In this document: piece after piece, positions 4,357 to 40,611 of the stretch
Layout: each line of letters starts with the position of its first letter
Position numbering within the stretch: position 1 is the first letter of the stretch
Origin: an uncultured Muribaculaceae bacterium
GTDB lineage: Bacteria > Bacillota_I > Bacilli_A > RF39 > UBA660
NCBI GenBank assembly: GCA_964626795.1
Contig: CAZVIQ010000002.1
Location: 1-43,337 of the forward strand
Direction: 5' to 3'
Length of the DNA: 43,337 nt
Position numbers and translations under genes: made by a program
Notes under the pieces: generated by a model
Database searches by the model: none
Seen by the model: the letters and a program-made list of their open reading frames with translations, nothing else
What the model was told of the DNA's origin: nothing

Positions 4357-6261
4357 ATGAAAAAAATATTTTTTCTTTTAATTCTTATATTTTTTCCTCT
4401 TATTACCTTAAATGCGGTTCCAAGTGATGAAGTTGACTATAGTGTAGAAGGTATATATATTAATGGTCAGATAGAAATAGCTGGAGCTGTTCATTTTAGA
4501 GAAATAATTAAGATAAGCGGAACTTATAATGGTTATATAAGAGATTTAATATATAAAAGAGATGCTCCAAGTTTTAATGGAGATGCGGATAGTTTTTACA
4601 ACAGCGATATTTATAATGGTGATGGTGTTATTATAAATAAAGTGGGAATACTTAATGTAGAAGATTTTAGTTTTGAAAATTTTGATGAAAACCATATAAA
4701 TGAAAATGTAGATTTCTTTAAAAACGAATCAAATAATACTTACGAAATATCTTCTATTAATAATGGTAAAAGCATTAAAATGTATAATGAAACAATAAGA
4801 GGAGAAACTTATTTTTATATTGACTATACAGTTACTAATCTAATAGTAGAACATAATGATTGTGCAGAATTTTACTATAATATAATTGGAGACAGTTTTG
4901 ATGATTATATTAATGAAGTCAAGGCAGTAGTATATCTTCCAGAAGCAGATCCGGATAATTTAAGAATATGGGCACATGGACCATTAAATGGAGAAGCTTA
5001 TATCATAGAAGGTGGATATGGAGGAATATTAAAAATAAATGGTTTAAATTCTTTTACTTCGATTGATTTAAGAATGACATACTCAAAAGAACTTTTTCCA
5101 ATAAATATAAACGAACATAAAAAATCTGGTGTCGATGCTATTCCATTCATTCTGGAAGCTGAAAATAAAAGAGCAGAGGAAGCAAATATACAAAGAAGAG
5201 CTGCTAAAATAACGGTTTATACCTCTGTAATATCTGGAATTCTATACATAATGGGTATAGTAGCTTTAACTTTCTATGCTTATATTAAACATGATAAAGA
5301 ATATAAAAGTGAATTTAAAAATAGATATAACAGAGAATTTATAGAAGATTACGATGTAGAAGTTGTTGACTATCTAATGAAAAAGAATATTTCTTCAGAT
5401 GCGTTTTCTGCAAGTATTTTAAATTTAATTTATAAGAAAAAAATTAGTGTAGAAGAAATAAAAGAGAAGAAAAAAGATTACCTTTTTACTTTAATAAGTA
5501 AAGAAGGAATAAGTGAAAGTGAAACAAAAATAATAGAATTATTATTTGATAAAATAGGTTCAGATAATAAAGTTAAAATGAGTAAAATTAAAAAAGTTTC
5601 AAAAGAAGTATATAGCACTAATAAAAATGTTATTTATGATAGTTTTAATGCTTGGAAAAATATAGTTTTTAAGGAAAGTCAGAAACAAGAATTTTTCACT
5701 AAAAATTTGAAAGTTAAATTATTATTAGGTTTTTATGGAATTTTAGGTTTTCTTATATTTGCTCTTTTAGTGAATGTGGGATTAGAATCATTTGGAATAA
5801 TTTTATTAGTTATATCGATTATATATTTACTGTATATTATTCTATTTACTAAAAGAACTGTTAAAGGTAATGAACATTATATTAAGTGGAAGGCTTTTAA
5901 AAGATTTTTAGAAGACTTTGGAAGATTTAAAGAAAAAGAACTACCTGAAATAGTTCTATGGGAAAGATATCTAGTATATGCAACGGTTCTTGGAGTTGCA
6001 GATAAAGTAAGCAAAGCTATGAAAGTTAAATTTGAAGAAATGAATATAAATAATAATACATTTGATAATACTTTCTATCATATATATTTATTTAACAGCA
6101 TAAATAATGATATTTCAAGAAATATAAACAGTTCAATTCAAAGTTCAATTTCAACTGTAAATATTGCTAATTCTAAAACATCTTCTGGAAGTGGCTTTGG
6201 AGGAGGATTTTCTTCCGGTGGAGGCTTCGGTGGAGGTGGCGGAGGAGGCAGAGGTTTCTAA
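4357..6261 (+). CDS. DUF2207-like membrane protein with Gly-rich C-terminal tail
   Basis: 634 aa. Signal peptide, large extracytoplasmic N-domain, TM segments near aa 285-310 and 455-500, and a C-terminal SGSGFGGGFSSGGGFGGGGGGGRGF tail. It sits in the classic position next to lemA. Confidence 0.7.
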   Translation: MKKIFFLLILIFFPLITLNAVPSDEVDYSVEGIYINGQIEIAGAVHFREIIKISGTYNGYIRDLIYKRDAPSFNGDADSFYNSDIYNGDGVIINKVGILNVEDFSFENFDENHINENVDFFKNESNNTYEISSINNGKSIKMYNETIRGETYFYIDYTVTNLIVEHNDCAEFYYNIIGDSFDDYINEVKAVVYLPEADPDNLRIWAHGPLNGEAYIIEGGYGGILKINGLNSFTSIDLRMTYSKELFPININEHKKSGVDAIPFILEAENKRAEEANIQRRAAKITVYTSVISGILYIMGIVALTFYAYIKHDKEYKSEFKNRYNREFIEDYDVEVVDYLMKKNISSDAFSASILNLIYKKKISVEEIKEKKKDYLFTLISKEGISESETKIIELLFDKIGSDNKVKMSKIKKVSKEVYSTNKNVIYDSFNAWKNIVFKESQKQEFFTKNLKVKLLLGFYGILGFLIFALLVNVGLESFGIILLVISIIYLLYIILFTKRTVKGNEHYIKWKAFKRFLEDFGRFKEKELPEIVLWERYLVYATVLGVADKVSKAMKVKFEEMNINNNTFDNTFYHIYLFNSINNDISRNINSSIQSSISTVNIANSKTSSGSGFGGGFSSGGGFGGGGGGGRGF

Positions 6262-6576
6262 TCTTTGTCTTTTTTTATTGATATCCTTAAATAGTATATT
6301 TTTTAATTTTTGAAGAATAAATAAGGAAGATGAATTAATATTTTCTAATTATTTGAATAGAAAATTAATGTTAATTAAATATAATGTGAAATAGCACAGT
6401 TTTAAATGCGAAAACAGGTAAAATTTGGCAGCTGGAGGGTAGACTATGATTTAGTATTAATAAAACAAAGTTTTTGTTTTGTGGAAATAAATATAAAAAA
6501 GAAAAGTGTATGAATGAAATAAGTTTTAAAATAATTACTAAATAACATAATCATTTAGAAAAAAATTTTTAAAATG

Positions 6577-6645
6577 AAAGAACCACAATAATCTGCCATA
6601 GCCTAAATATACTAGCGTATATCAACCTATAACTTGTGGTTCTTT
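6577..6645. other. Long-range perfect 12-bp inverted repeat with a 45-nt loop (possible minus-strand terminator or small structured RNA)
   Basis: AAAGAACCACAA (6577-6588) and TTGTGGTTCTTT (6634-6645). The loop contains a nested TATAC/GTATA hairpin. The element lies just downstream of the minus-strand ORF that ends at 6686. Confidence 0.35.
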
Positions 6646-6685
6646 TAGTATTATTACCATAAAATAATAAATTATACATAAATGT

Positions 6686-7072
6686 TTATTGTAATACAAA
6701 TTTTCTATCATCTTCTAATTCAATTAGGCCTTTAATTTTATCTTCATTCATGGTTAAGAATAGATTATCTAAAGTGCTAAATGAATAATCAACATCTTTT
6801 AGATTACCAGTGTAATATTTAACTGATTCTGTATCCTTTGAAGTTTTTCTTGTTACAAATATATCAATATATGGGTTATCTTTAATTATCATATATTGGA
6901 TGGCTAAATTTGGTAAAAAATGTGTTCTAATTATCGCATCATATTTAGAAATTTTTTGAATACATAAAGGTGTGTAAACATAGTTTTCTGCTAGACTATT
7001 CGAATCATTTCCTGTTAAATCCTTAGAAACATATAAAGTTTTAAAAAGCTTATTATTTAATACAGAAAACAC
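6686..7072 (-). CDS. Hypothetical protein (possibly the 3' half of a frameshifted gene)
   Basis: 128-aa ORF whose only possible start is GTG at 7072. It overlaps the upstream ORF by 16 nt. No recognisable motif. Confidence 0.45.
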   Translation of the reverse strand: MFSVLNNKLFKTLYVSKDLTGNDSNSLAENYVYTPLCIQKISKYDAIIRTHFLPNLAIQYMIIKDNPYIDIFVTRKTSKDTESVKYYTGNLKDVDYSFSTLDNLFLTMNEDKIKGLIELEDDRKFVLQ

Positions 7073-7422
7073 ACTTTTTTACTGTCCTTTTGGCAAGGAA
7101 GAATTCCTGTAGCTTGTGAAAACTCTATTTCAAATATAATTCCATTACTATCAGTTTTAGTTGATATTTGTGAATTACAGGTTCTTTTTATATCGCTGTA
7201 GGGATCTTCTATAGTTTCTATAGATGATAATCCATCTAATTCAGGGATAAGTGAACTGTCATAAACAGTTGAATCAGGATTAAATGTATTTGAATTATCT
7301 CTTAAAAGCATATCATTCAAATATTTTTCAAATGATTCCAGATCAGTTTGAAACTGACTATCATTTGCAATTAACTTATCTGTTCTTTTTTTAAATAAAT
7401 TTGTTATATCAATTTTTTTCAT
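7057..7422 (-). CDS. Hypothetical protein (possibly the 5' half of a frameshifted gene)
   Basis: 121-aa ORF with an ATG start. The minus-strand sequence upstream reads AAGGAGTATGTATG, giving an RBS. No recognisable motif. Confidence 0.5.
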   Translation of the reverse strand: MKKIDITNLFKKRTDKLIANDSQFQTDLESFEKYLNDMLLRDNSNTFNPDSTVYDSSLIPELDGLSSIETIEDPYSDIKRTCNSQISTKTDSNGIIFEIEFSQATGILPCQKDSKKVCFLY

Positions 7423-7527
7423 ACATACTCCTTAACTTTTTATTATAAACAAGTTATATCACTAAATCAAGTGAAAAAATCTTTATATTTTAATGCTTTT
7501 AGTATATAATTAAATTTAGGTGAAATA

Positions 7528-9303
7528 ATGCAGGACAAAATAAGAAATTTTAGTATCATAGCGCATATAGATCATGGAAAGAGTACTTTAGCAGATAGAA
7601 TTATTGAAATCTGTGGAGGTCTTACTTCAAGAGAAATGAAAGATCAATATTTAGATTCAATGGATATAGAACGTGAAAGAGGAATAACTATTAAACTTAA
7701 TGCAGTTGAACTTAAATATAAAGAACATATTCTTCATTTAATAGATACTCCGGGACACGTGGATTTTTCTTATGAGGTAAGTAGGAGTCTTGCTGCTTGT
7801 GAAGGCGCAATCTTAGTTGTAGATGCAGCCCAAGGTATAGAGGCTCAGACTCTTGCCAATTTTTATCTTGCTCTTAATAATGGTTTAAATATTATTCCAG
7901 TTATAAATAAAATTGATTTACCCAACAGTGATATTGAAAAGGTAACAAAAGAACTTTGTGATATTGGATTTAATAAAGATGAGATAATTTGCTGCAGTGG
8001 TAAAACTGGTGTCGGAGTTTCAGAACTTCTCGATGCAGTTATAGAAAGAATTGAAGCACCTAAAAGCGAAAATAATAAATTCAGAGCTTTAATATTTGAC
8101 AGTTATTTTGATGCATATCGTGGTGTGGTTGTACTTATGAGAGTAATGGATGGCTCTGTTAAAGTTGGAGATAAAATAAAAATGATATCTACAGATGGAG
8201 AATATGAAGTATTAGAACTGGGAAAATATACTCCTAAAGTAAACAAAAGAGAAACTTTAAGTGCGGGAGAGGTTGGATATTTAACTGCCAGCATTAAAAG
8301 TATAAGCGATATAAATGTAGGAGATACGATTTATAAAGCGGGTGAGAAAATTGAACCGCTTCCGGGATATAAACCTATGAAACCTATGGTTTATTCAGGT
8401 ATTTTTCCTGTTGAAAGTAATAAATATGAACAATTAAAAGAAGCGCTATCTAAACTCAAATTAAATGACGCGGCTTTAATATATGAACCAGAAACCAGCG
8501 TAGCTTTAGGATTTGGTTTTAGATGTGGATTTCTAGGTCTTCTTCATATGGAAATAATAGAAGAACGAATAGAAAGAGAATTTGGAATAGAAATAATCGC
8601 GACAAGTCCAAGTGTTGTATATGAAATTATTTTAAATGATAAAACAAATATATTTATAGATAGTCCTTCAAAAATGCCTGAGCAGACTAAAATAAATAAA
8701 ATTTTAGAGCCTTATGTAAAAACCAGTATATTTGTTCCAAATGAATACATAGGCGCTGTAATGGAGATTTGCCAAGATAAAAGAGGAAGCTATCAGGGAA
8801 TGGATTATTTAGATACTGGAAGAGTAAATATTCATTATGAAATTCCTTTGAGTGAAATAATATATGATTTTTTTGATAAGCTTAAAAGTAATACTTCAGG
8901 ATATGCTTCAATGGATTACGAATTAATTGGTTATAAAGAAAGTAGTCTTGTTAAGCTTGATATATTATTAAATGGTAGTATAGTAGATGCACTTAGTATT
9001 ATAGTTCATAAGGATTTTGCTTATAAGCGTGGTAAAAAAGTAGTTGAAAATTTAAGAAAGATTATACCAAGGCAGATGTTTGTTGTACCTATACAGGCCT
9101 CGATTGGATCTAAAATAATCTCAAGAGAAGATATACCAGCAATGAGAAAAAACGTACTTGCGAAATGTTATGGAGGAGATATTTCTAGAAAAAGAAAACT
9201 TTTAGAGAAACAAAAAGAAGGTAAAAAAAGAATGAAACAGGTAGGAAATGTAAGTATACCACAGGAAGCTTTTTTATCAGTACTTAGTGTTGATGATAAT
9301 TAA
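7528..9303 (+). CDS. lepA: Translation elongation factor 4 (LepA)
   Basis: 591 aa. GTPase motifs [14 protein letters not shown] and NKID, plus the LepA-specific C-terminal domain ([22 protein letters not shown]). Confidence 0.95.
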
Positions 9304-12155: not shown

Positions 12156-12246
12156 TGGCGGAGTAGGAGAGATTTGAACTCTCGCGCCAGTTTCCCGACC
12201 TACACCCTTAGCAGGGGCGCCTCTTCAGCCTCTTGAGTACTACTCC
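12156..12246 (-). tRNA. tRNA-Ser (anticodon GCU), class II with long variable arm and encoded CCA
   Basis: The reverse complement reads GGAGTAGTACTCAAGAGGCTGAAGAGGCGCCCCTGCTAAGGGTGTAGGTCGGGAAACTGGCGCGAGAGTTCAAATCTCTCCTACTCCGCCA. The acceptor stem GGAGTAG/CTACTCC pairs. The anticodon loop is CT-GCT-AA. A T-loop GTTCAAATC and a long extra arm are present. Confidence 0.9.
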
Positions 12247-12272: not shown

Positions 12273-12614
12273 TTATTTTTGAATATTAGTCAAGTTTAGA
12301 GTGACACCTATATTAATACAATTTTCTTCTATAAATTCACTTGGAAGTTCTAAAACATAATAAACTTTTTTATTTTTAACTATAATTCTATTAGGCTTTA
12401 AATTGTTAAAAACATAAAGAACTTTAAAATTTTTATCCATCATGATAACATCAATATTTTGAAAACAAAAGAAAGTATGTATTGAACTTACTTTTTTAAA
12501 AAGTATTCCATAATCAATTTTTTTTCTTTTAAACATAATTCCAATTAATCTTTTAAAAAAATTGTCTGCAGTAACAGTTTTAATTTTTATATTCTTTGTC
12601 ATATCAAACCACAT
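12273..12614 (-). CDS. DUF192-like small protein
   Basis: 113 aa (109 aa if ATG 12602 is the start). The pattern ADNFFKRLIGIMFKR...GILFKK..SIHTFFCFQNIDVIMMDKNFKV...YVLELPSEF matches my recollection of the DUF192/COG1430 consensus (GLM..., hMknt.hpLDhhFhD, vLEl.aG). Confidence 0.55.
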   Translation of the reverse strand: MWFDMTKNIKIKTVTADNFFKRLIGIMFKRKKIDYGILFKKVSSIHTFFCFQNIDVIMMDKNFKVLYVFNNLKPNRIIVKNKKVYYVLELPSEFIEENCINIGVTLNLTNIQK

Positions 12615-12635: not shown

Positions 12636-12664
12636 TTGACAAAAATATAAAATTCATTTAGAAT
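12636..12664 (+). promoter_or_regulatory. Candidate sigma-A promoter of the pilus operon
   Basis: TTGACA (12636-12641), a 17-nt spacer, then TAGAAT (12659-12664). RBS AGGTGAG follows at 12671-12677. Confidence 0.55.
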
Positions 12665-12681
12665 TATACTAGGTGAGACGT

Positions 12682-12879
12682 ATGTTAAATAGGTTAAATA
12701 AAAAAGGTCAAGCTTTAACAGAATACATTCTTATCATTGCATTAGTAAGTGTTATAGCAATCGCGATTGTAAACGTTTTTGGAGGATATCTTAAAGATGC
12801 CATGACAAAAACAAGTTGCAATTTAGTGAATCAATCTTATGTTGAGGGAGAAAAGCCGGGTGAAGGTTATTGTGAATAA
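12682..12879 (+). CDS. flp: Flp/Fap-family type IVb prepilin
   Basis: 65 aa from ATG 12682 (the track starts at GTG 12673). Short basic leader MLNRLNKKG, then the Flp motif QALTEYILIIALVSVIAIAIV (G at -1, E at +5, Y at +6). Confidence 0.8.
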   Translation: MLNRLNKKGQALTEYILIIALVSVIAIAIVNVFGGYLKDAMTKTSCNLVNQSYVEGEKPGEGYCE

Positions 12880-13336
12880 GAAAGCAGGTTTTACGCTGGT
12901 AGAGCTTTTAGCAACAATCGCACTTTTATCAATATTGATAGTTTTTGTTGTCCCAAAAATATACAGTTATATTCAAACAGGTACAAATAAAGCTTTAGAA
13001 CTTCAGGAGAAGAATGTAGAGGATGCTGCTAAAATATTTTTAGAAGATTATTGTAAATCACCTATAACTTTAGCTCATGCTACTCAGTGTACTAAACTTT
13101 TAAATAAAGAAATTACTTCCAGTGGTTTTGCAACTTTTGAAGGTATATTAAAATTAAGCTTTTTAATTGAAAAAGATTATATTGATCCAGTTACATTTAA
13201 AAAGAATTCTTGTGATGATACCAGCTATATAGAGTTTAATACTGATGATACAATTAAAGCATATTTAAAATGTGGTGATATAAAAACTTCAGACTGGAAT
13301 CAGGAAAAATTAAATGATGCAAAACCTAATGAATAA
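12872..13336 (+). CDS. Type IV pilin/pseudopilin with a class III (prepilin-type N-terminal cleavage/methylation) signal
   Basis: (V)NKKAG|FTLVELLATIALLSILIVFVVP is a canonical GFTLxE motif. GTG 12872 is in frame and overlaps the flp stop (12877-12879). The track's upstream start at 12839 would lie inside flp. The globular part has four Cys. Confidence 0.8.
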   Translation: MNKKAGFTLVELLATIALLSILIVFVVPKIYSYIQTGTNKALELQEKNVEDAAKIFLEDYCKSPITLAHATQCTKLLNKEITSSGFATFEGILKLSFLIEKDYIDPVTFKKNSCDDTSYIEFNTDDTIKAYLKCGDIKTSDWNQEKLNDAKPNE

Positions 13337-13691
13337 AAAAAAGAAAGGACAAGCGCTGGTAGAATTTATTATTATATTACCAATTTTCTTATTCTTAATA
13401 TTTGGATTAATAGATTTTGGAAAGATACTTTATATTAAAAATGAACTTACTGTTTTATTACCCGAAGTTAAAGAAATGTATAAGGATAAAACTTATGAAG
13501 AAATTGAAAAGTATGTTAGAAAGAATAATAAGGATAATAAGATTAGTATAACGACTAAAGATGAGAATGTTACTTTTGAAATTTATAGAAATTTAAATAT
13601 TGTAACACCGGGGCTTAATCTTATAATTGGTAATCCGTATAAAGTTACTGCTTCGCTTATTATTAATAATGAGAGTACTGAAAAAGAATGA
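13314..13691 (+). CDS. tadE: TadE-like pseudopilin
   Basis: MNKKKKG|QALVEFIIILPIFLFLIFGLIDFG matches the TadE N-terminal signature. The start is either 13314 or 13329. It overlaps the preceding pilin gene. Confidence 0.75.
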   Translation: MMQNLMNKKKKGQALVEFIIILPIFLFLIFGLIDFGKILYIKNELTVLLPEVKEMYKDKTYEEIEKYVRKNNKDNKISITTKDENVTFEIYRNLNIVTPGLNLIIGNPYKVTASLIINNESTEKE

Positions 13692-13980
13692 TGGTCAAAT
13701 CTTAGTGATGTTTCTTATGCTTCTTCCTGTTATGATAATGCTTATAATGTTGGTAGTAGATACAGGCTTCATGATTAATAGAAATCTTAGTATAAAAAGT
13801 GTTATAAATAATGAAGAAGATATTGCTAAAATAGAAGTGGAACTTGGTAGAAATAAAATAAATTATGATAGTCTGGAAAAGAAAGATGATTGCATAATAG
13901 TAAATTCAACTGTAAAGGCTCTTTTTGGAAAGATAATTGGAAAAAAAGAATATAAAATAGTTGTAAAAAACTGTAAATAA
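13669..13980 (+). CDS. TadG/TadF-like (Tad_N type) pilus assembly protein
   Basis: From ATG 13669: MRVLKKNDGQILVMFLMLLPVMIMLIMLVVDTG. This fits the G-x-hydrophobic...LLP...VDxG pattern of TadE/G-like N-termini. It overlaps the tadE end. The track start at 13627 is probably too far upstream. Confidence 0.6.
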   Translation: MRVLKKNDGQILVMFLMLLPVMIMLIMLVVDTGFMINRNLSIKSVINNEEDIAKIEVELGRNKINYDSLEKKDDCIIVNSTVKALFGKIIGKKEYKIVVKNCK

Positions 13981-13991
13981 AGAGGGATGTT

Positions 13992-14762
13992 ATGAAAGGG
14001 ATAAAAGGAAAAAGTCTTTGTATCTATTCTCCTAAAGGTGGAATAGGTAAAACTATTTTGGTTTCTAATCTAGGTGCAGTGGCAAGTAAGATGAATAAAA
14101 AAGTACTGCTTCTGGATTTTGATTTATATTTTGGGTGTTTATCCATGTTCATAAATGAAAATATTACCAAGACAGTATTTAATCTAGCAGATGATTTAAA
14201 TAATAATAGATATAAGTCAATTAATGATTATATATATAAGTATAATGATAACATTGATATTCTTTGTGCACCCAAAGATCCTAGACAGGGTTCTAAAATA
14301 AGTGCCAAATATATTGATATAATTCTTGACAGAACTACAAGTATATATGATTTAGTAATAATAGACACCTATGCAAGTTCTGATGAAATAACAGTAAGTA
14401 TTTTAGATGTCATAGATAATATTCTTTTTGTAGTTGATAATGATCCTTTTACTATGAAAAACATGAGAAATATACTTAGTATTTTTAAAGATAATGAATT
14501 TGATAATTATAAAGTTTTATTAAATAATTCACTTAGTTCAAAAATATATTATTTTTCAAATGCAGAAATTAGAAAAGTAATTGATGCAAATATTGATTAT
14601 ACATTAAGTAATAATTTTTTTATGAAAGATATATCTTCAGCTATATATGATTCTACTATACCTATACTTTATAAAAATAATTATAGGAAATATAGAAATG
14701 ATATAAATAACATGAAACTTATAATTAAAGATGTAATTGAGGTTGAAGATGAAAAAGAATAG
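13992..14762 (+). CDS. tadZ: TadZ/CpaE-like ParA/MinD-family ATPase (no N-terminal receiver-like domain)
   Basis: 256 aa with a deviant Walker A, YSPKGGIGKTILVSNLG, then LLLDFD. It sits immediately upstream of tadA. Confidence 0.75.
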   Translation: MKGIKGKSLCIYSPKGGIGKTILVSNLGAVASKMNKKVLLLDFDLYFGCLSMFINENITKTVFNLADDLNNNRYKSINDYIYKYNDNIDILCAPKDPRQGSKISAKYIDIILDRTTSIYDLVIIDTYASSDEITVSILDVIDNILFVVDNDPFTMKNMRNILSIFKDNEFDNYKVLLNNSLSSKIYYFSNAEIRKVIDANIDYTLSNNFFMKDISSAIYDSTIPILYKNNYRKYRNDINNMKLIIKDVIEVEDEKE

Positions 14763-16086
14763 TTTAAAAGATGTTTTTGAAATTCAGAATAAAGATGCTT
14801 GTCCTACTATTGTTTCAGATTATGAAGTATTTAAAGATAAGGTTCTTTTGGATGAACTTAGAACAAAAATAATTTCTAATTTAATAGATAACGAACTTCC
14901 TGTTGGGATTTCTTTAATCGATTTTATAAATAATGAAATAGATAGAAGTTTAGAAGGATATGATTTATCAAATCTTGAAAGAAGTCATATTTTTAATTTA
15001 ATAGATAATGAAATTACAGGATATGGACCTTTAACAGAACTCTTAAAAGATAAAAACATTAGTGAAATAATGGTAAATGCACCAGATGAGATTTATATTG
15101 AAATAGATGGTTCTCTTGTAAAAGATTCAAGTATTTCATTTATTAATAATGAACATATAATTAGAACAATACAGAGAATGATCCAGCCTTTAGGAAGAAC
15201 AATAGATGCGACTAATCCTATGGTTGACTCAAGACTTAAAGATGGTTCAAGAATTAATGCTGTTATACCTCCTCTTAGTGTAAGAGGCCCTGTACTAACT
15301 ATAAGAAAGTTTAAAGCTTCTTTAGAAACAGCTGATGATTTACTTAGAATGGGTACTTTTACTCCATATATGGCAAGATTTTTAGAAGCAGCAGTTCAGG
15401 CTAAACTTAATATTATAATATCTGGAGGTACAGGAAGTGGTAAAACTACACTTCTTAATATCTTAAGTTCGTTTATAAATAATAATGAAAGAATTATTAC
15501 AATAGAAGATGCAGCAGAACTTAAACTTCGTCAAAGTCATGTTATTTCTTTAGAAACCAGAGTAATGAATTATGACTCTGATGGTGAAGTAACAATTAGA
15601 GATTTAGTGATAAATTCACTTCGTATGAGACCAGATAGAATTATAGTAGGTGAAGTTCGTGGTAAAGAAGCGTTTGATATGCTTCAAGCAATGAATACAG
15701 GTCATGACGGCTCTCTTTCAACACTTCATGCAAATGGAGTAATGGATGCTTTAAATAGACTTGAGACAATGGTACTGATGAGTGGTATAGAAATTCCAAT
15801 TAAAGCAATAAGAGAATATATATTTAATGCTATAGATATTGTTATAAATATTGAAAGATTAAGTGATGGAAGAAGAAAAATTCTAAAGATAAGTGAACTT
15901 AAATCAATGGAAAATGGGGATATAATTCTTGAAGATATCTTTGCGTTTACTGAAAAAGGTCTTACAAAAAATGGAGAAGTAGATGGAGAATTTATACTTT
16001 ATGAAAAAGTTCCTAAAGTTTTAAAGAAAATTAGAAGTAAAGGAATAAATTCTATAGATTTTATGTTTGAAAAAGTAGAGAGGTAA
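14749..16086 (+). CDS. tadA: TadA/CpaF secretion ATPase
   Basis: Walker A GGTGSGKTT, Asp box ITIEDAAEL, Walker B RPDRIIVGEVRG and His box NTGHDGSLSTLHAN, plus ISEIMVN. I prefer ATG 14749 (RBS GAGG) over the track's TTG at 14737. Confidence 0.9.
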   Translation: MKKNSLKDVFEIQNKDACPTIVSDYEVFKDKVLLDELRTKIISNLIDNELPVGISLIDFINNEIDRSLEGYDLSNLERSHIFNLIDNEITGYGPLTELLKDKNISEIMVNAPDEIYIEIDGSLVKDSSISFINNEHIIRTIQRMIQPLGRTIDATNPMVDSRLKDGSRINAVIPPLSVRGPVLTIRKFKASLETADDLLRMGTFTPYMARFLEAAVQAKLNIIISGGTGSGKTTLLNILSSFINNNERIITIEDAAELKLRQSHVISLETRVMNYDSDGEVTIRDLVINSLRMRPDRIIVGEVRGKEAFDMLQAMNTGHDGSLSTLHANGVMDALNRLETMVLMSGIEIPIKAIREYIFNAIDIVINIERLSDGRRKILKISELKSMENGDIILEDIFAFTEKGLTKNGEVDGEFILYEKVPKVLKKIRSKGINSIDFMFEKVER

Positions 16087-16088
16087 TT

Positions 16089-17099
16089 ATGGATAAGATA
16101 AGAATACTTGAAATATTAATTACTCAGATGATAATTGTTTTATCATTAGTTTTTATTATTATCTCACTTCTTATCGTTCGTAAAAATAATAAAATAATAA
16201 AGAAATTTAATAATTATACTGTTAAATCAATAAAAAGGGCTAATGTATCTTTTTTTGATAAGCTTATTTATATGATGGAATATATAATATCTAAGAATGC
16301 TGAAGTATTAAGAAAACTTAGATTTATGACTAGATATGCTAAAAAGTATGATAAACATTTAACTTTTGAAGAACTTAAGAATAAAGATGGTTTTTATATA
16401 CTTTCTACTAAGTTTATGATGACTTTTTTTATAGTACTTTTGTATTTTTTAAATCAGGTATTCAGATATAAAGATATAACTTTTGGAGGTATATTTTTAT
16501 CTGGAATACTTGGATATTTTATAACTGATATATTTCTTTTACTTAATTATATGAAGAAGAAAAAAGAGATTGAAGAAGATCTTTTAAAAGCAATCATGGT
16601 AATGAACAGTGCATTTAAAAGTGGTAGAAGTTTAGTTCAGGCAATTGAAATCGTTAAAGATGAACTTACTGGGGCGATAAGTGATGAATTTAAGAAAATA
16701 TATCTTGATATTTCTTATGGGCTTAGTGTTGAAACAGTATTTGAAAGATTTTATCAAAGAATAAAGCTTGAGGAAGCAAAATATATTTCAAGTAGTTTAA
16801 CTTTACTTAATCAAACAGGAGGAAATATTACTAAAGTATTTGAATCAATAGAAAAAGAATTTTATAGTAGAAAAAAACTTGATAATGAATTAAAAACTAT
16901 GACTGCTTCAAGTGTTTTTGTTTTTAGAACGTTATTATTTATGCCTTTTATAGTGTGTCTTGTAATATTTATATTAAATAATAATTATTTTGATCCTCTT
17001 TTTAACTCTGGATTAGGAAAAATAATTCTTGCTTTAATAGGAATACTTTATTTAATATATATAATAATTATTAAAAGAATAATAAAGGTGGAATTATAA
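16089..17099 (+). CDS. tadB: TadB-like platform protein (T2SS F-domain)
   Basis: 336 aa. Polytopic, with a cytoplasmic helical domain (LLKAIMVMNSAFKSGRSLVQAIE...) flanked by TM segments. Its position follows tadA. Confidence 0.75.
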   Translation: MDKIRILEILITQMIIVLSLVFIIISLLIVRKNNKIIKKFNNYTVKSIKRANVSFFDKLIYMMEYIISKNAEVLRKLRFMTRYAKKYDKHLTFEELKNKDGFYILSTKFMMTFFIVLLYFLNQVFRYKDITFGGIFLSGILGYFITDIFLLLNYMKKKKEIEEDLLKAIMVMNSAFKSGRSLVQAIEIVKDELTGAISDEFKKIYLDISYGLSVETVFERFYQRIKLEEAKYISSSLTLLNQTGGNITKVFESIEKEFYSRKKLDNELKTMTASSVFVFRTLLFMPFIVCLVIFILNNNYFDPLFNSGLGKIILALIGILYLIYIIIIKRIIKVEL

Positions 17100-17797
17100 T
17101 GAAAAATGAGATTTTAATTGAAAAAATATATTCTGCCAAGAGTATAGAAAAAATAAAAAAGAAAGTTAAACTTTTAGGTATTAATTCAAAAATAAATGCA
17201 ATAGAATTTCTCAATTTAAGACTTATGCTATGTTTCTTAGTTTTTATATCGCTTCTTTATTTTTCAGAGTTACCTTTTATATATGCACCTTTAGTTACAA
17301 TTATTATTTATATTGCTTTTGAATATATTATAATTGACTACCAAATAAAAAATAGAATAAGAAAACTAGATAAAGATGCATTATTCTTTTTTGAAATATT
17401 AGCTTTATCACTTGAAGTAGGAAGAAATTTAAAGGGTGCATTAGATCTTACCGTTAAAAGTATTAAAAATGACTTATCTGATGAGTTTGGGATAGTAATA
17501 GAAGAAGTAAATTATGGTAAAAGTTTAAATGAAGCACTTGTAAAAATGAAAGAAAGAATACCAAGTGAAACTGTAAATAATGTAATACTAAATATTACTC
17601 AATCAAATACTTTTGGAACTTCAATTATAGATACACTTCATCAGCAGGTAGCGTATATCAGAGATAAAAAATTCTTAGAAACAAAAGCTATAATTAATAA
17701 GATGCCAATTAAAATAAGTGTTATATCTGTAGTACTGTTTCTTCCAATTATGCTTTTACTTTTACTTGGACCTATACTTATAGATTTTATGAAGTAA
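17099..17797 (+). CDS. tadC: TadC-like platform protein (T2SS F-domain)
   Basis: 232 aa with the same TM - helical domain (FFEILALSLEVGRNLKGALD...) - TM architecture. ATGA overlap with tadB. Confidence 0.7.
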   Translation: MKNEILIEKIYSAKSIEKIKKKVKLLGINSKINAIEFLNLRLMLCFLVFISLLYFSELPFIYAPLVTIIIYIAFEYIIIDYQIKNRIRKLDKDALFFFEILALSLEVGRNLKGALDLTVKSIKNDLSDEFGIVIEEVNYGKSLNEALVKMKERIPSETVNNVILNITQSNTFGTSIIDTLHQQVAYIRDKKFLETKAIINKMPIKISVISVVLFLPIMLLLLLGPILIDFMK

Positions 17798-17851: not shown

Positions 17852-17989
17852 AATTCATCGGTTAACCTAAACTACATCAACGTGGGCAGTGACGTGCATC
17901 TGGCAGTTTCTCTTAAATCTTGTATTACTGTAACTGGAGGAACCGGTATTAAAGAAAATCCTTATATAATATCTAATTCTACTTGTTAA
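17852..17989 (+). pseudogene. 3' remnant of a paralogue of the 472-aa protein encoded at 25366-26784
   Basis: An open frame of 45 codons without a start codon or RBS. It translates as ...LNYINVGSDVHLAVSLKSCITVTGGTGIKENPYIISNSTC*. By hand alignment, 16 of the last 28 residues are identical to ...SVSLKSCIVVTSGDGTLSSPYILSDKAC* (26698-26781). The DNA string CAGTTTCTCTTAAATC is shared. Confidence 0.7.
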
Positions 17990-18081: not shown

Positions 18082-18192
18082 ATGAAAGATAAAGGAAGAA
18101 CAATTGTAATTTTTGCTATTTTACTATTACTACTTGGGCTTTTATATATATTATATTTTCATACGGGTTATTTCGATATTTTGAAAAAATAA
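18082..18192 (+). CDS. Small hydrophobic protein (36 aa), not in the ORF track
   Basis: MKDKGRTIVIFAILLLLLGLLYILYFHTGYFDILKK. RBS GGAGAG lies about 8 nt upstream, and a TATAAT-like box lies at about 18056. Single TM segment. Confidence 0.45.
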   Translation: MKDKGRTIVIFAILLLLLGLLYILYFHTGYFDILKK

Positions 18193-18227: not shown

Positions 18228-18926
18228 ATGATAAAATTCGGCAATAAATCGTTAGAAAGTTTTATACAGTTTAAATTAAATAAAACAAATAATAATTTTA
18301 CTGAAAAAGAGTTGAAGAGCATTAAGACTTTAGACTTGAATCCTATAGATATTGATTCTAATTATAGTAGAATCAATCTTGAAGATTTAAAATATTTTCC
18401 CAATTTAAAATATCTGACTATATCAAATATGCATGTTGATATAGCTTCTTTTGCGTTTATATTAAGATTAGAACATTTAGTAAGTCTAACTTTTATTAAT
18501 TCCACATTTCAGGATTTGTCAATTTTGTCTAATTTTAAACTAGAACATATTGGTTTTATTAATTCAAATCTTGAAGATTTAGGGATTATAAATAGAGTAA
18601 AGAGTTTAAAAGAGTTAACTTTAATTAATTATAAAGATATAGATTTATCATATTTTATAAATTTAAATTTAATTTCATTGGAATTATCAAACAGTACAGT
18701 TAAGAATGAGAATGGTATTGGTGAACTTAGTAATTTAAGTAAACTTATTGTATGTAATACTAATATCATGAATTTAAACTTTTTAAACAAACTTAAGAAA
18801 TTAAAAGAACTTTATATTACAAAGACACAATATATTGCTAATAAAATGATTATAAATAATTTAGTTAAAAATAAAGTTTCAGTATACATTGATAATAATA
18901 TATTAATTAATAAAGGAGAATTATAA
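18228..18926 (+). CDS. Leucine-rich repeat protein without a signal peptide
   Basis: 232 aa with about seven repeats of roughly 22 residues (LxxLxxLxLxNxxIxDLxxL type), e.g. LKYFPNLKYLTISNMHV and LSNLSKLIVCNTNIMNLNFLNKLKKLKELYI. RBS AGGAG. Confidence 0.75.
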   Translation: MIKFGNKSLESFIQFKLNKTNNNFTEKELKSIKTLDLNPIDIDSNYSRINLEDLKYFPNLKYLTISNMHVDIASFAFILRLEHLVSLTFINSTFQDLSILSNFKLEHIGFINSNLEDLGIINRVKSLKELTLINYKDIDLSYFINLNLISLELSNSTVKNENGIGELSNLSKLIVCNTNIMNLNFLNKLKKLKELYITKTQYIANKMIINNLVKNKVSVYIDNNILINKGEL

Positions 18927-20419
18927 TGATATTTTCAAATAAAATAATTGATCTTAAATATTTTAATCCTACTCTTATTAATTATATAAATGATACTGTT
19001 AAAAACAATGCTTTTTTAGGTACAACTATTGTTTTTGAAAGTACAAAAGGTTTAACGTCAGAAATGGTTGAACTTATTAATAAGTCTTCTAAGCTTAAAT
19101 TTAGAATATCTGGTGCTTTTGATTCCAAAAGAATAGAATCAAAAAAAATAAGTAAAAAACAGATTGAAGAAGAATATATCGAACCAGTTACTTATTCTAG
19201 AGAAGAACTTTTTAATATTTTAATAGTTATTGAAAGAATGGAAGAGAGTATTCCAGAAGAAATTTCAGATTTAGAAAAAGCGTTATATATATATAATAAT
19301 TTAAATAAATATTTTAACTATAAATATCATAAGGATACTGTTTCTAATAAAGAAGCAAGTTCATTTAGAGGACTTGTAACTAAAAACATAAATGCTAAAG
19401 GTATTGCACTTATTTTTCAAGAATTAATGCGCAGACAGAGCATTGAAGCTCATTATGTTGAAGGGAAACTCAAAAGTGAAGAATTTGATATTCCTCATTT
19501 TTGGAATATAATTCAGATTGATGGTAAATTTATTCCTTTAGATTTATATCTTGAAATAGAAGAATCAAGAAAAGGGTATTTTGGAGAATTATTGTATTTT
19601 GGAGAAATAAATTCGTTTTCTGAGACACATGTTCCAAGTAATACAGAGATTATACAGTTCTATAACAATTCTCTTTTTGCAATTTCAAAACAAGATTTAA
19701 TAGACTCGTTTAAAAACATATTTACTAATAAAGAGTATAAATTTAAAATAAATGCTTTTAAAAGAAGTAATGGAACTGAAGGAGTGTTCTCTTTTGTAGA
19801 AAGTGAACAGTGTTTAGAAAAAGAATATCAAAAAATAATTTATTTTGATGTAGTAGGCGGCAATACAATAGAAAACCCTTCAATTTTATATCTTGATGCT
19901 AATATAGAATTTATAGAAGAAGAACTTTTTATAGATAAAGTCAAGGTTGATGAAGCTGGATATAAAATCTTATATGAGAAGGTACTGGATCCTACCAATA
20001 TAAGAACAGGGATAACGCTTAACAATGGTTATATAGGAACACTAAAAAATGAAGATAATATTTTAAAGTTCTCTTATGATAGTAAAGTAAAAGATAATAT
20101 TAAAAACTTTCAAAAACTTCTTGTAAGAAGTGATAATACTACATTTGTTTTAGAACAGTTAAATACTACTTTAGAAGGTGAAATAGTAAGTACCAATAAA
20201 TATAAAATATACGAATTATTATATAATGAAGAATACTATGTATCTGAAAAAATTATATATACTGAGAAAGATATAATTGGAAATAATAGTGCAGAATTTA
20301 TTAATAATATATTGTCTGTTAAAAATATTAATAATGCTGTACTTTATAAAAGTGGTTATTTGGGATATTTTAATCCGGCAGAAATAAAAATAATAGATAA
20401 AAAAGAAAGCGAACAGTAA
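18926..20419 (+). CDS. Transglutaminase-like-fold protein apparently lacking the catalytic Cys, plus an unknown C-terminal half
   Basis: 497 aa, with an ATGA overlap to the LRR gene. The segment AKGIALIFQELMRRQSIEAHYVEG...PHFWNIIQIDGKFIPLDL matches the G-x-C...G-I-P-A-R-x-V-x-G...H-x-W-N...D core pattern, but Ala sits where the nucleophile Cys is expected. Confidence 0.5.
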   Translation: MIFSNKIIDLKYFNPTLINYINDTVKNNAFLGTTIVFESTKGLTSEMVELINKSSKLKFRISGAFDSKRIESKKISKKQIEEEYIEPVTYSREELFNILIVIERMEESIPEEISDLEKALYIYNNLNKYFNYKYHKDTVSNKEASSFRGLVTKNINAKGIALIFQELMRRQSIEAHYVEGKLKSEEFDIPHFWNIIQIDGKFIPLDLYLEIEESRKGYFGELLYFGEINSFSETHVPSNTEIIQFYNNSLFAISKQDLIDSFKNIFTNKEYKFKINAFKRSNGTEGVFSFVESEQCLEKEYQKIIYFDVVGGNTIENPSILYLDANIEFIEEELFIDKVKVDEAGYKILYEKVLDPTNIRTGITLNNGYIGTLKNEDNILKFSYDSKVKDNIKNFQKLLVRSDNTTFVLEQLNTTLEGEIVSTNKYKIYELLYNEEYYVSEKIIYTEKDIIGNNSAEFINNILSVKNINNAVLYKSGYLGYFNPAEIKIIDKKESEQ

Positions 20420-25365: not shown

Positions 25366-26784
25366 ATGAATAAGAAAGCTATTATAATTAGTATATTAAT
25401 TACTTTACTATTAATGAGTTCATTAATAGTTTTTAGATTTGATAATAAAAAAGAAATATATATAACAAAATCCAGTGAAATAAAGAATACTAAACTAAGC
25501 ATGATAAAAATAGAAGAAGGAATATCAACAGTAATAAAAGCAGTACCGACAAGTGGCAACTGGTATATGGATTATAATTGTGAAAATGACAATACAAAAT
25601 TATTCTGGGATGATGACAGCAAAAAAATCTTGGTAAAAGAAGCTGGAGATACAGAATGCACAGTAATATTTGAAAAGACAAAATCAGCAATAAATATAGT
25701 ATCAATGTATGTAGATGATGTATATGTAGGAGAGCTAGAAGAAAGTAAATCATATAGGTTATTATCATATGAATGTGCAAACGGAGAAACAGTAATGTGG
25801 AACGGAATAGAAAGTGAAGTTTCTGTAAAACCACTAAGACAGAACACACATTGTAAATTATATTTTGAAGAAGCACCATATTTATATAATAAAATACTAT
25901 TAGACAATGTTGTACAAAGTGATTCAAGTATAAACTTCGCTAATTCATCATCAGACACAAATGGAAAAGGATTATACTATACAGAAAATGAACTAACATA
26001 TGGAGAGGATAATACAAGAATCTACTATTTTAGAGGAAGAGTAGAAAACAACTGGGCAAGCTTTGGAGGATACTTATGGAGAATTGTGCGTACAACAAGT
26101 GAAAATGGAATAAAGTTAGTATATTCAGGAAATGGACAGGGAACTACTAGTGGACATATAAAATCAGTTGTGTTTAACACAACTAATAATCGATATCGTA
26201 TGGGATATACTTATAACTTAACTGGTTACAGTGGAAATCAAACAGATAGTTTAGTTAAAACAGAAATAGATAGTTGGTATGAAAGTAATTTAAGTTCTTA
26301 TTCAAATTATTTAAGTGAAACTGCTGTATATTGCTCTGATAGAGATGGTTCTTCATTTCCTGTGAGAGTTCGACTTTATGCAAATAAAAGACCATCATTT
26401 GCATGTCCGAATGCAAATGAAAGTAGATATACAGCAAGTATAACAACAGGAAATGGATACTTACAAAAACCAATTGCCTTACTAACTGCAGATGAGGTAC
26501 ATTATTCAGGAGTCATTTATGGAACAAAAAGTTTAAATTCATATATTATGGATAATGTAACAGAGATATCTAATTGGTGGCTTATATCACCTTTTAGTCA
26601 AGATGTTAGAGGGGGAGGCTGGTGGTGTCTTTTCTCAGTACGTCCTGGCGGAGATTTATACGATGATGCTCATGTAAATTCTGGTGCTGTTCGTCCCTCA
26701 GTTTCTCTTAAATCATGTATAGTGGTAACAAGTGGAGATGGAACTTTATCTAGTCCATATATATTAAGTGATAAAGCTTGCTAG
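25366..26784 (+). CDS. Membrane-anchored extracytoplasmic protein of unknown function, with two Cys-bracketed modules and a conserved C-terminal domain
   Basis: 472 aa with an N-terminal TM anchor. Two modules of about 40 aa (aa 65-104 and 128-168) follow the pattern Y.C.N...W....VK....C..FE. Later motifs are NNWASFGGYLWRIVRTTSENGIKLVY, WWLISPFS and AVRPSVSLKSCIVVTSGDGTLSSPYIL. Confidence 0.6.
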   Translation: MNKKAIIISILITLLLMSSLIVFRFDNKKEIYITKSSEIKNTKLSMIKIEEGISTVIKAVPTSGNWYMDYNCENDNTKLFWDDDSKKILVKEAGDTECTVIFEKTKSAINIVSMYVDDVYVGELEESKSYRLLSYECANGETVMWNGIESEVSVKPLRQNTHCKLYFEEAPYLYNKILLDNVVQSDSSINFANSSSDTNGKGLYYTENELTYGEDNTRIYYFRGRVENNWASFGGYLWRIVRTTSENGIKLVYSGNGQGTTSGHIKSVVFNTTNNRYRMGYTYNLTGYSGNQTDSLVKTEIDSWYESNLSSYSNYLSETAVYCSDRDGSSFPVRVRLYANKRPSFACPNANESRYTASITTGNGYLQKPIALLTADEVHYSGVIYGTKSLNSYIMDNVTEISNWWLISPFSQDVRGGGWWCLFSVRPGGDLYDDAHVNSGAVRPSVSLKSCIVVTSGDGTLSSPYILSDKAC

Positions 26785-30119: not shown

Positions 30120-30997
30120 TGAGTAAAATAATAGTTCTTGTAGGGCCTACTGGTATTGGTAAAACTAAATTAAGCATAATGCTTGCTAAAAAATATAATG
30201 CAGAAATTATTAATACTGATAGAATGGCTATGTACAAAGAAACCTCAATTGGAACTGCAAAAGTAACTGATAAAGAAATGGAAGGTATAGTTCATTATTT
30301 TATCAGTAATATTTCACTTAATGATTACTATACAATATATGATTTTCAAAAGGAAGGTAGAAAAGTACTTGATAACCTAATAAAAAAGAATAGAAATGTA
30401 ATCGTGGTTGGAGGAAGTGGGCTATATACTAAAGCTCTTTTATATGATTATAAACTTGAAGATGAAGTTAAAATCAATGATAGTTATGAAAATCTATCTA
30501 ATGAAGAACTTAAAGCTTTAGCGGATTCAATTTCTGAAAATGATATTCATAAAAATAATAGAAAGAAATTAATTAGATTTATAAATTCATACAAATCAGG
30601 TAATTCTATTAAAAACTCTGATGAAAAAGATAAGCCTTTGTACAATTTCATTATTATAGGTTTAACTACTGAAAGAGAAGAACTTTATAAAAGACTGAAT
30701 GACAGAGTAGATAAAATGATAAAGGTTGGACTTGTAGAAGAAGCTAAAAAATTATATGAAAAAGAATATTACAGTTTAAGTAATATAATTGGATATAAAG
30801 AATTGATTCCTTATTTTAAAGGAGAATTAGATTTAGAGTCAACAATAGAAGACATAAAAAAAGATACCAGACACTATGCAAAAAGGCAATATACATGGTA
30901 CAGGCATCAATTTAATAATATTAATTGGTTTAATGTAGATTTCAATAATATAAATAATACATTTAAAGAAATAGATGAGTTTATTTCGCTTCAATAA
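30119..30997 (+). CDS. miaA: tRNA dimethylallyltransferase
   Basis: P-loop GPTGIGKT, with GGSGLY and YAKRQYTW motifs. ATGA overlap with mutL. Confidence 0.9.
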   Translation: MSKIIVLVGPTGIGKTKLSIMLAKKYNAEIINTDRMAMYKETSIGTAKVTDKEMEGIVHYFISNISLNDYYTIYDFQKEGRKVLDNLIKKNRNVIVVGGSGLYTKALLYDYKLEDEVKINDSYENLSNEELKALADSISENDIHKNNRKKLIRFINSYKSGNSIKNSDEKDKPLYNFIIIGLTTEREELYKRLNDRVDKMIKVGLVEEAKKLYEKEYYSLSNIIGYKELIPYFKGELDLESTIEDIKKDTRHYAKRQYTWYRHQFNNINWFNVDFNNINNTFKEIDEFISLQ

Positions 30998-31883
30998 AGA
31001 ACGTAGTATCAAAATTATGTTCTTTTTTATCTATTTCAATTAATTTTTCAGTACTTATTAAGAAAAATTTATCTTTTAAATCATGTTCACTGTCAGTATC
31101 ACTCCAAGTAATATCAATATGACTCCATTTATCATTAATATAAACTAAGTTCCAGATATGATTTTCAGTAGATACCTTTATATTTGGAATTCCAAGTTTG
31201 TCTAAAAATAAAGCCATTGCATCACTGTAACCACTGCATACTGCTTTTCCATCAAATAAAGCACCAGTAGCTTTTGTAGATGGACTTTTTACATCTCCGC
31301 CTAGAAAGTCATCATCATATGTTACATTATTTACTAAATAATATTTTATTTTTCTAAGATTGTTTTCAACTTCATTTTCTTTTAATTCTAACTGTTCAAT
31401 AACTTCCTTAACTTTCTCATTAAGAAGTTCTATTTCATTTTGAGTATATGATTTATGAACTGTTAAAGTTATCGTACCATATTCATCTATCGAAGTATCT
31501 AAATATGCAAAACTGTTATATGGACTAACATAGTTGTTTATTTTGCTTATTAAAGTAGTATCATTACTCATAACTCTTATATCATCAAGACATCTTTCAT
31601 ATTCATCAGGACAATAAAATGTAAATGTATCCCATCCATTATTAAGAATATTAAAATATATATTTTCTAAATCATCTTTATTCATAGGTTTGTAATCATC
31701 AAGATACATAAATCTCTTAAAATTATAATCTCTTCTATAGTCATTGCTGTCTTCAATTACTAAAGGCATATTTTTGGTGAAGAATTTAATTGTATAGTCA
31801 GTTATAGTATCAATATTAAAATATACTAAAGGTATTAGCAGTATTAAGAAAGAAATAAATATAAAACTTACTATCTTTTTCAT
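30981..31883 (-). CDS. Membrane-anchored transglutaminase-like domain protein (Cys-His-Asp triad present)
   Basis: 300 aa with an N-terminal TM segment. Core GKAVCSGYSDAMALFLDKLGIPNIKVSTENHIWNLVYINDKWSHIDITW. Its 3' end overlaps the miaA 3' end by 17 nt (convergent). Confidence 0.7.
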   Translation of the reverse strand: MKKIVSFIFISFLILLIPLVYFNIDTITDYTIKFFTKNMPLVIEDSNDYRRDYNFKRFMYLDDYKPMNKDDLENIYFNILNNGWDTFTFYCPDEYERCLDDIRVMSNDTTLISKINNYVSPYNSFAYLDTSIDEYGTITLTVHKSYTQNEIELLNEKVKEVIEQLELKENEVENNLRKIKYYLVNNVTYDDDFLGGDVKSPSTKATGALFDGKAVCSGYSDAMALFLDKLGIPNIKVSTENHIWNLVYINDKWSHIDITWSDTDSEHDLKDKFFLISTEKLIEIDKKEHNFDTTFFIEAK

Positions 31884-32179: not shown

Positions 32180-32300
32180 AATCCACCTCCTCATGAATAC
32201 TTTTAAAGTTTATCAAAATTCCTATTAAAAATCAAGTTTTTCTTAAAGAAATAACATAATTTCTACATAATTTGTGATTTTCATAATATATACTTTATAT

Positions 32301-40026: not shown

Positions 40027-40611
40027 ATGAAAAAAATAATTGATAAGAAAATATTATTTATTTTATTATTAATAGCAGGACTAGGTTTTCTTTTTGGTCT
40101 GGTTTTTATTTTTTTAATTGATAAAATGGACAAGTTAATAATAAAGACAGAAATAACAGAATATATTTCTTTAATTTTAAATAAAAGTTATAGCATTAAG
40201 AAAGGAGTAATGAATGAAATAACTAATAATTTAGTAAATTATTCATTAATATTTATATCTTCGGTTATATTTATACTTTTACCACTTGTTTTATTTTTTG
40301 ATTTTTATATATTTTTTACCTTTGGTTTTATGATTAGTTCGTTTATATATACTTATAAAGTTAAAGGATTAATGTATTTAATATATTTTATTTTTCCATT
40401 TAAAATTCTTAATATATGTTTAATTTTAATGTTTATTATGTTTTCTATAAAATTTTCTAAAAAGATATATTTGTTTTTTAGTACAAATGAAGAAATCAAT
40501 ATAAAACTATATACTAAAAAATATATTATTATTTATTTATTATTTATAGTAACCTCAATTATTATAAGTGTTTTAGAAATGTATTTAAGTTTATTTCTTC
40601 TTACAATATAA
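40027..40611 (+). CDS. Polytopic membrane protein, SpoIIM-like
   Basis: 194 aa. The size, TM layout and soluble linker after TM1 resemble stage II sporulation protein M. No strict motif could be checked. Confidence 0.4.
   Translation: MKKIIDKKILFILLLIAGLGFLFGLVFIFLIDKMDKLIIKTEITEYISLILNKSYSIKKGVMNEITNNLVNYSLIFISSVIFILLPLVLFFDFYIFFTFGFMISSFIYTYKVKGLMYLIYFIFPFKILNICLILMFIMFSIKFSKKIYLFFSTNEEINIKLYTKKYIIIYLLFIVTSIIISVLEMYLSLFLLTI

Follow-up and report, generated by a model that had tools for sequence, protein, structure and literature searches.

The Tad (type IVc) pilus systems of Caulobacter crescentus (Cpa) and Aggregatibacter actinomycetemcomitans combine a CpaF-type ATPase and paired TadB/TadC platform proteins with TadE-type minor pilins and a Flp pilin bearing a G↓xxxxEY motif (the arrow marks the predicted cleavage site), together with an RcpA/CpaC secretin, RcpB/C, TadD, TadG, and a prepilin peptidase encoded in the locus. 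A smaller set has been described in the single-membrane, gut-associated Bifidobacterium breve UCC2003, whose tad2003 genes encode Flp, two TadE/F-type pilins, TadZ, TadA, TadB, and TadC, without a secretin, RcpB/C, or TadD, and whose prepilin peptidase lies at a separate locus (PMC6916266). A 2019 catalogue covers the Tad systems of Bacilli and Clostridia, where many occur (PMC6668835). Among Bacillota, Bulleidia extructa (Erysipelotrichales), with a reduced genome of 1.38 Mb, carries a 13-gene operon that begins with tadV and encodes headless Flp-like pilins and TadE, TadF, and TadG-type proteins, with a DUF192 gene close to the 3′ end and, after it, a gene for a coiled-coil protein; DUF192 consistently adjoins Tad genes, and the operon was judged to be horizontally acquired (PMC12786226). 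Here we describe an eight-gene tad operon on contig CAZVIQ010000002.1 of an uncultured bacterium, within a 43-kb stretch of DNA that we call the window and whose numbering is used throughout; Tad loci of relatives are given L-numbers. The locus is likely to be a complete Tad assembly operon of a very AT-rich, small-genome, sporulation-gene-bearing lineage of gut Bacilli.

Set beside these systems, the window locus has the same set of Tad proteins as B. breve and the same absences, with the differences that its host belongs to the Bacillota and not the Actinomycetota, that it is known from sequence alone, and that it adds an N_methyl pilin gene and a divergent DUF192 gene, neither of which is listed for the B. 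breve set (PMC6916266). It shares with B. extructa the reduced genome, the headless pilin, the TadE-type proteins, and the DUF192 neighbor, but it lacks tadV, its DUF192 gene is divergent and at the 5′ end, and its operon is found throughout the lineage. With the diderm systems it has in common the CpaF-type ATPase, the paired platform, and both pilin types, while the secretin, RcpB/C, TadD, TadG, and in-locus peptidase are all absent from the window locus. The pilin genes come first in the window, whereas in the B. breve tad locus they lie downstream.

Eight plus-strand open reading frames (ORFs) span positions 12682–17797 in the order flp, a classical N_methyl pilin gene (gene 2), tadE-like, tadE/G-like, a domain-minimal tadZ, tadA/cpaF, tadB, and tadC. 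In the ORF list they are tightly packed or overlapping, every junction being an overlap or a gap of at most 11 nt. The flp 3′ end (12879) overlaps gene 2 whichever of its candidate starts is used (12839, 12860, or 12872); gene 2 (end 13336) overlaps tadE (start 13314), tadE (end 13691) overlaps the tadE/G-like gene (start 13669), tadZ (end 14762) overlaps tadA (start 14749), and tadB and tadC have position 17099 in common, with spacings of 11 nt from tadE/G to tadZ (13992) and of 2 nt from tadA to tadB (16089). A preliminary description of the DNA had proposed a monoderm Tad/Flp operon with these eight ORFs, gene assignments, and junctions, and all of this was confirmed by the coordinates and by profile hidden Markov model (HMM) searches, in which Flp_Fap, TadE, Tad, T2SSE, T2SSF, and ParA-type models matched the locus. 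It was likewise correct that the window holds neither a secretin nor a TadD gene, and that the operon is flanked by a tRNA-Ser gene (gct anticodon; 12156–12246, minus strand) upstream and by dnaG, starting at 20549, downstream. The top hit of a promoter scan, a sigma-70-like match TTGACA-17-TAGAAT on the plus strand at 12636–12664 (11 of 12 positions), lies upstream of flp and is followed by a ribosome-binding site, AGGTGA, at 12670; since the total of promoter matches in this AT-rich region is not above that in shuffled sequence, the match is only suggestive. A terminator scan predicted none inside the operon, and no plus-strand terminator was seen after tadC.

The assembly machinery is of the Tad class. 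The TadA/CpaF secretion ATPase (14749–16086, plus strand) matches T2SSE with E = 6e-63 and carries the Walker A motif GGTGSGKTT. Its best match among the equivalog models is TIGR03819, at 313 bits though under the cut-off of 373, against 68 bits for ComGA and 50 for PilB; compared with proteins of the PDB, it scores 345 bits with Caulobacter CpaF (residues 67–414), 149 with the archaeal GspE-type protein 2oap, 131 with FlaI, 122 with VirB11, and 48 with PilT. Close orthologues bear the NCBI name "CpaF family protein", and the model scores agree with the earlier assignment of the ATPase to CpaF/TadA instead of PilB/ComGA. As in other Tad systems, the platform consists of two paralogous proteins with one T2SSF domain (PF00482) apiece, TadB (16089–17099, plus strand; E = 3.8e-15) and TadC (17099–17797, plus strand; E = 3.5e-13). 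The type IVa/ComG pattern is thus not seen, as the PilB and ComGA models give the ATPase only 50–68 bits and the platform is split into two TadB/C-type genes. The TadZ-like ATPase (13992–14762, plus strand) is of the ParA/MinD type, matching AAA_31 (E = 8e-14), CbiA, and an archaeal MinD model (55 bits), with a deviant Walker A motif, SPKGGIGKT. Its assignment is one at superfamily level, from the AAA_31, CbiA, and MinD-type matches and the KGGIGKT motif: no model of the two libraries searched picked it out specifically as TadZ, and the nearest, TIGR03815 for the actinobacterial CpaE homologue, gave 19.5 bits against a cut-off of 154. Diderm TadZ/CpaE has an N-terminal receiver-like domain, which the window protein lacks; it contains ParA/MinD-type domains only, in keeping with the earlier view of it as a bare ATPase domain.

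The first gene of the operon (12682–12879, plus strand) encodes a Flp-type prepilin of 65 amino acids, with the leader MLNRLNKKG and a mature protein of 56 residues that begins QALTEY and contains two cysteines. Such a very short major pilin with a G↓xxxxEY motif and no globular head is what is expected of the Tad class. The Flp_Fap model is matched by 26 of 27 lineage orthologues, and in their alignment G↓QAL(V/T)EY and the two cysteines are invariant. These cysteines, C46 and C64 of the precursor, flank a conserved YVEGEKPGEG loop, which suggests a C-terminal loop closed by a disulfide, an unusual feature in pilins of this small size, given that the host is presumably an anaerobe. Divergent from flp lies a DUF192 (PF02643) gene at 12273–12614 on the minus strand (Pfam E = 2.6e-11; 43.9 bits, cut-off 27). 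Over loci L001–L063, which are phylogenetically non-independent, flp and DUF192 occur together in 20 and are both missing from 25, with flp by itself in 3 and DUF192 by itself in none, so that the two genes behave as one module. DUF192 also adjoins distant Tad loci of three other phyla, in Dehalococcoidia, Bryobacterales, and Caldisericia (L065, L069, and L073), and its position beside Tad genes in Erysipelotrichales and Helcococcus was already reported in 2025 (PMC12786226).

Two further products are minor pilins of the TadE/TadF type, as is usual for the Tad class. The TadE-like protein (13314–13691, plus strand; KKKG↓QALVEF) matches PF07811 with E = 2.9e-10 and 40.5 bits (cut-off 22.9), and has an orthologue in every lineage locus except L001, L008, and L018, where there is a contig end or too weak a match just upstream of tadZ. 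The second, TadE/TadG-like protein (13669–13980, plus strand; KKNDG↓QILVMF) reaches 26.0 bits on PF07811, above the same cut-off, and 17 bits on PF13400 (Tad), under its cut-off; in an alignment of 39 family members including the window protein, TadE matched 26 and Tad 21. Its processing is uncertain, because Glu5 is missing both from this protein and from its orthologues, which read G↓Q[ST]L[IVL][ML]F. The preliminary description had counted four prepilin-like substrates with the motifs KKG↓QALTEY, KAG↓FTLVEL, KKG↓QALVEF, and NDG↓QILVMF. All four motifs are present as quoted, but the count of four substrates is not supported, the fourth protein, without Glu5, being an uncertain one. In a relaxed scan of the whole window, class-III-like signals at the start of plausible coding ORFs were confined to these four genes and a 36-residue ORF downstream of tadC (18082–18192, plus strand). 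The latter starts MKDKG↓RTIVIFAILLLLLGLLYILYF..., has no Glu5, and may encode a small membrane peptide or represent a decayed pilin-like gene.

Gene 2 encodes a classical type IV pilin (N_methyl/GFxxxE; ...NKKAG↓FTLVEL) at 12860–13336 on the plus strand, within a maximal ORF from 12839; of the three candidate starts, the GTG at 12860 is preceded, at a distance of 8 nt, by the best Shine-Dalgarno sequence, GAGGGAG. The protein scores 28.9 bits on N_methyl (PF07963; cut-off 21.2) and 25.8 on TIGR02532 (cut-off 16.3), and it has the class III signal, namely a short basic leader, Gly, Phe at +1, and Glu at +5 (KKAG↓FTLVELLATIALLSILIVFVV), followed by the hydrophobic α1-N helix of about 20 residues that the class also demands. 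Its N-terminus is similar to Geobacter PilA-N, PilA, and MshA, and the AlphaFold2 model (predicted local distance difference test, pLDDT, 79) has a 54-residue helix (residues 13–66) and a small α/β head. With ComG and type IVa pilins it therefore shares the leader-Gly↓Phe-Thr-Leu-x-Glu start and the hydrophobic helix, and it matches ComGC, GspG, and PilA models weakly, but its equivalog scores are far under the cut-offs (ComGC 25.8 versus 75), the window has no ComGA/PilB, ComGB/PilC, or ComC/PilD, and the gene sits within a Tad operon. A word-seeded search of a 5.8-billion-sequence protein database returned only 7 homologues, at 28–98% identity, and the G, F, T, L, V, and E of the motif never vary across all 8 family members. 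The slot between flp and tadE holds a classical pilin only in the window, L002, and L081–L083, the closest relatives found, of which L002 and L081 are the two nearest. Elsewhere in the lineage, N_methyl pilin genes are tightly packed between tadA and tadB (L035 and L054) or lie directly 3′ of tadC (L003 and L014). The in-operon classical pilin is real, unusual, and rapidly evolving, and the gene was added to this operon within one sub-clade. Tight packing in tad operons argues for co-expression, and the product is probably co-expressed, serving as one more minor pilin or tip pilin or else riding along as a passenger on the same peptidase.

The peptidase itself is not encoded at the locus. Neither a GxGDxK regular expression nor an HMM trained on five TadV sequences, run over all ORFs of the window and of L001–L080, detected an A24 aspartyl prepilin peptidase in the window, as the preliminary description had noted, or within 10 kb of any lineage Tad locus (about 1 Mb of lineage DNA), which extends the absence to the whole lineage. 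The search works, since the five TadV proteins behind the HMM do adjoin distant Tad loci (L069, L072, L073, L074, and L078). By analogy with B. breve, and as peptidases are sometimes shared among type IV filament systems (PMC6668835), an unlinked peptidase is compatible with membership of the Tad class and would not be unusual. In four relatives, an orphan PilB/GspE-like ATPase gene is encoded on the minus strand 6–9 kb upstream of tad (L028:1132–2721, L031:489–1832, L055:2–1270, and L062:1973–3511), with N_methyl pilin genes as its neighbors in L031 and L055, and these genes show that components of a second type IV filament system are present in the lineage. Class-III N_methyl ORFs are also common among the lineage sequences (about 0.023 per kb), and some exceed 1000 amino acids. 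Because of this second filament ATPase with its N_methyl pilins and the frequent class-III ORFs, a peptidase almost certainly exists elsewhere in the genome, and a genome devoid of any A24 peptidase would be highly improbable. A multi-pass membrane ORF at 40027–40611 was considered as a cryptic peptidase and rejected, having no Pfam match and no GxGDxK motif. We presume, as a guess, that it resembles SpoIIM.

By analogy with studied Tad systems, the steps of processing and assembly can be proposed as follows. The Flp prepilin and the TadE-like protein would insert in the membrane, perhaps joined by the TadE/G-like protein and the classical pilin, and there an A24 peptidase encoded elsewhere, which may be common to the second type IV filament system, would cut the prepilins after the leader Gly. 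A TadA/CpaF hexamer would then dock on the TadB/TadC platform and polymerize Flp, with TadZ probably recruiting or positioning the Tad machine and the minor pilins priming or capping the fiber. A secretin would not be needed, since there is a single membrane to cross. The most likely role, as in Bifidobacterium breve, is adhesion and gut colonization.

Relatives of the window TadA at 62–76% identity come from about 62 species-level genomes (L001–L062), labeled as uncultured Bacilli, Tenericutes, Mollicutes, Erysipelotrichaceae, Candidatus Ventrenecus, Candidatus Coprosoma, Clostridium sp. CAG:710, or Firmicutes bacterium CAG:822; the two closed genomes measure 1.20 and 1.34 Mb (L021 and L031). 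The core of tadE, tadE/G, tadZ, tadA, tadB, and tadC is kept across these approximately 62 genomes, and gene identities, operon packing, and conservation throughout the lineage are all matters of direct observation. The window TadA is 46–56% identical to TadA of Chloroflexota, Actinomycetes, and Caldisericota and just 23–26% identical to the lineage's own PilB-like ATPases. Lineage operons always lie amid housekeeping genes (obg, rpoD, mutS, a murC-like ligase gene, yebC, ruvAB, lepA, or hemW), with the lepA-hemW upstream context common to L007 and the window. The proposal that the locus would be a poorly described variant of the type IV filament superfamily does not survive these comparisons and fails by the criterion that the preliminary description itself had set: the architecture is already well populated in public genomes, and it is ordinary Tad, fitting the existing Tad/Tfpc class and the published minimal monoderm set.

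The same comparisons bear on where the operon came from. Its position immediately downstream of a tRNA-Ser gene, together with the frequent horizontal transfer of Tad loci (PMC6668835), could point to a recently acquired accessory island; the preliminary description had taken the locus for an accessory insertion in a housekeeping backbone. This origin is very unlikely, and the idea is unsupported, because about 62 species-level relatives conserve the operon, with obg, rpoD, lepA, and hemW recurring in its surroundings as they do in the window, because its GC content (0.23–0.30, in a window of about 25%) equals that of the flanks, and because no integrase, transposase, or repeat boundary occurs among the window ORFs. 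The operon is instead an old, retained trait of the lineage. Several results nevertheless weigh against its reading as a complete Tad assembly operon. No peptidase gene was found for the source organism within its 43 kb, and flp is missing from the surroundings of about half of the lineage loci, so that the lineage does not have one uniform major subunit. The preliminary description had raised the concern that the small ORFs might miss the pilin models; the N_methyl and TadE models matched above their cut-offs, while Flp against Flp_Fap (E = 4e-6) reached 26.8 bits, under the Pfam cut-off of 32.2. For the gene-2 model, a Foldseek search of the PDB gave no meaningful match (best E = 0.9), and the fold argument is for this reason one from secondary structure. 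Finally, GFxxxE ORFs were no denser in the operons than in their 10-kb flanks, at 0.023 per kb in both (Poisson P = 0.56), counts that are approximate since the regular expression missed the KAG↓F motif of the window and the FG↓F motif of L025; with equal densities, we make no statistical claim of linkage between classical pilins and Tad.

That null result also bears on a more elaborate account of the pilus, in which a Tad machine would handle hybrid substrates, with GFxxxE pilins bearing globular heads placed beside Flp, whether at the tip, as minor subunits, or to carry adhesins, and one peptidase serving both pilin classes. The tight packing of classical pilins in tad operons at three different positions, and the overlap of gene 2 with both of its neighbors, speak for it, but, besides the equal densities, the majority of lineage operons have no classical pilin, the 7 homologues of gene 2 point to very fast evolution, and the PilB-like ATPase of relatives could be the real partner of such pilins; we regard the account as possible but unlikely. 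Its broader form, in which the Tad machine repeatedly captured GFxxxE pilins, whose globular heads evolve fast, as exchangeable tip or minor pilins of a cross-class type IVc and IVa-like fiber with a shared peptidase, seems to us rather unlikely. If true, captured pilins may be the lineage's main route of adhesin display; RFN20 and ML615J-28, related uncultured Bacilli orders, have been inferred to lack sortases (PMC10868615). As to function, the pilus might serve DNA uptake (competence) instead of adhesion, supplying nucleotides or DNA to a genome-reduced auxotroph. Micrococcus luteus, with its Flp pili (Angelov 2015, cited in PMC6916266), and Liberibacter, with its Tad pili (PMC8513845), offer precedents for Tad-dependent DNA uptake, and the complete genomes of relatives are small (1.2–1.34 Mb). 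However, no comEA, comEC, or dprA-like genes were recognized, by inspection only, in or beside the window locus, and the operon holds nothing specific to DNA binding, which makes DNA uptake an improbable, lesser rival to adhesion.

Beyond the operon, the window carries pheST, lepA, rpoD, obg, mutL, miaA, and the sporulation genes spoIIP (32274–33275; E = 4e-49) and spoIVB (36665–37648; E = 3e-67), whose presence in a small-genome lineage fits the published patchy retention of sporulation across uncultured Bacilli orders. The tad operon is followed by a gene for a leucine-rich-repeat (LRR) protein (18228–18926) and one for a transglutaminase-like protein (18926–20419), and a second transglutaminase-core protein is encoded at 30981–31883 on the minus strand. 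The LRR and transglutaminase-like genes were rejected as Tad parts, as they are not found 3′ of tadC in L081 or in other relatives that extend this far; the L002 contig ends too soon past tadC to judge. Just after tadC, a 35-residue ORF (17882–17989, plus strand) resembles the C-terminal module of a 472-residue membrane-anchored protein without a Pfam match (25366–26784, plus strand; tblastn E = 1e-7, 50% identity), and appears to be a copy or remnant of that module. The same C-terminal sequence, ..VRPxxxLKSxxxxxGGxGTxxxPYxI, also terminates large surface proteins encoded next to the Tad loci in L007, L009, L012, L031, L038, and L050.

Surface proteins of other kinds recur at the lineage loci. 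In several relatives without flp, the slot upstream of tadE holds 1–4 proteins of about 170–190 amino acids (L012 ~5900–8400; L016 ~6700–8400; L034; L042; L055:7904–8407), with the N-terminus ...GVGYAAFQTxLNIxG and Ig-like or Listeria-Bacteroides-repeat domains, and these are possibly a different fiber or surface cargo. Such Ig-like surface proteins appear to stand in place of flp in about half of the lineage. Large proteins that open with a GFTLxE class III signal occur in L053 (1070 amino acids), L049 (773), L029 (574), L033 (512), and L025 (439), and their architecture suggests modular pilin-adhesins.

Three leads emerge for the type IV filament field, namely classical pilins encoded within tad operons, the strict flp–DUF192 pairing, and loci with Ig-like surface proteins where flp would be; they leave the current picture of Tad systems unchanged, and their value is modest. 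For the organisms themselves, the minimal monoderm Tad operon is a trait that a widespread group of uncultured gut Bacilli has kept stably and by vertical descent, and, since the complete genomes of relatives comprise only 1.2–1.34 Mb, the pilus is probably important for gut colonization.

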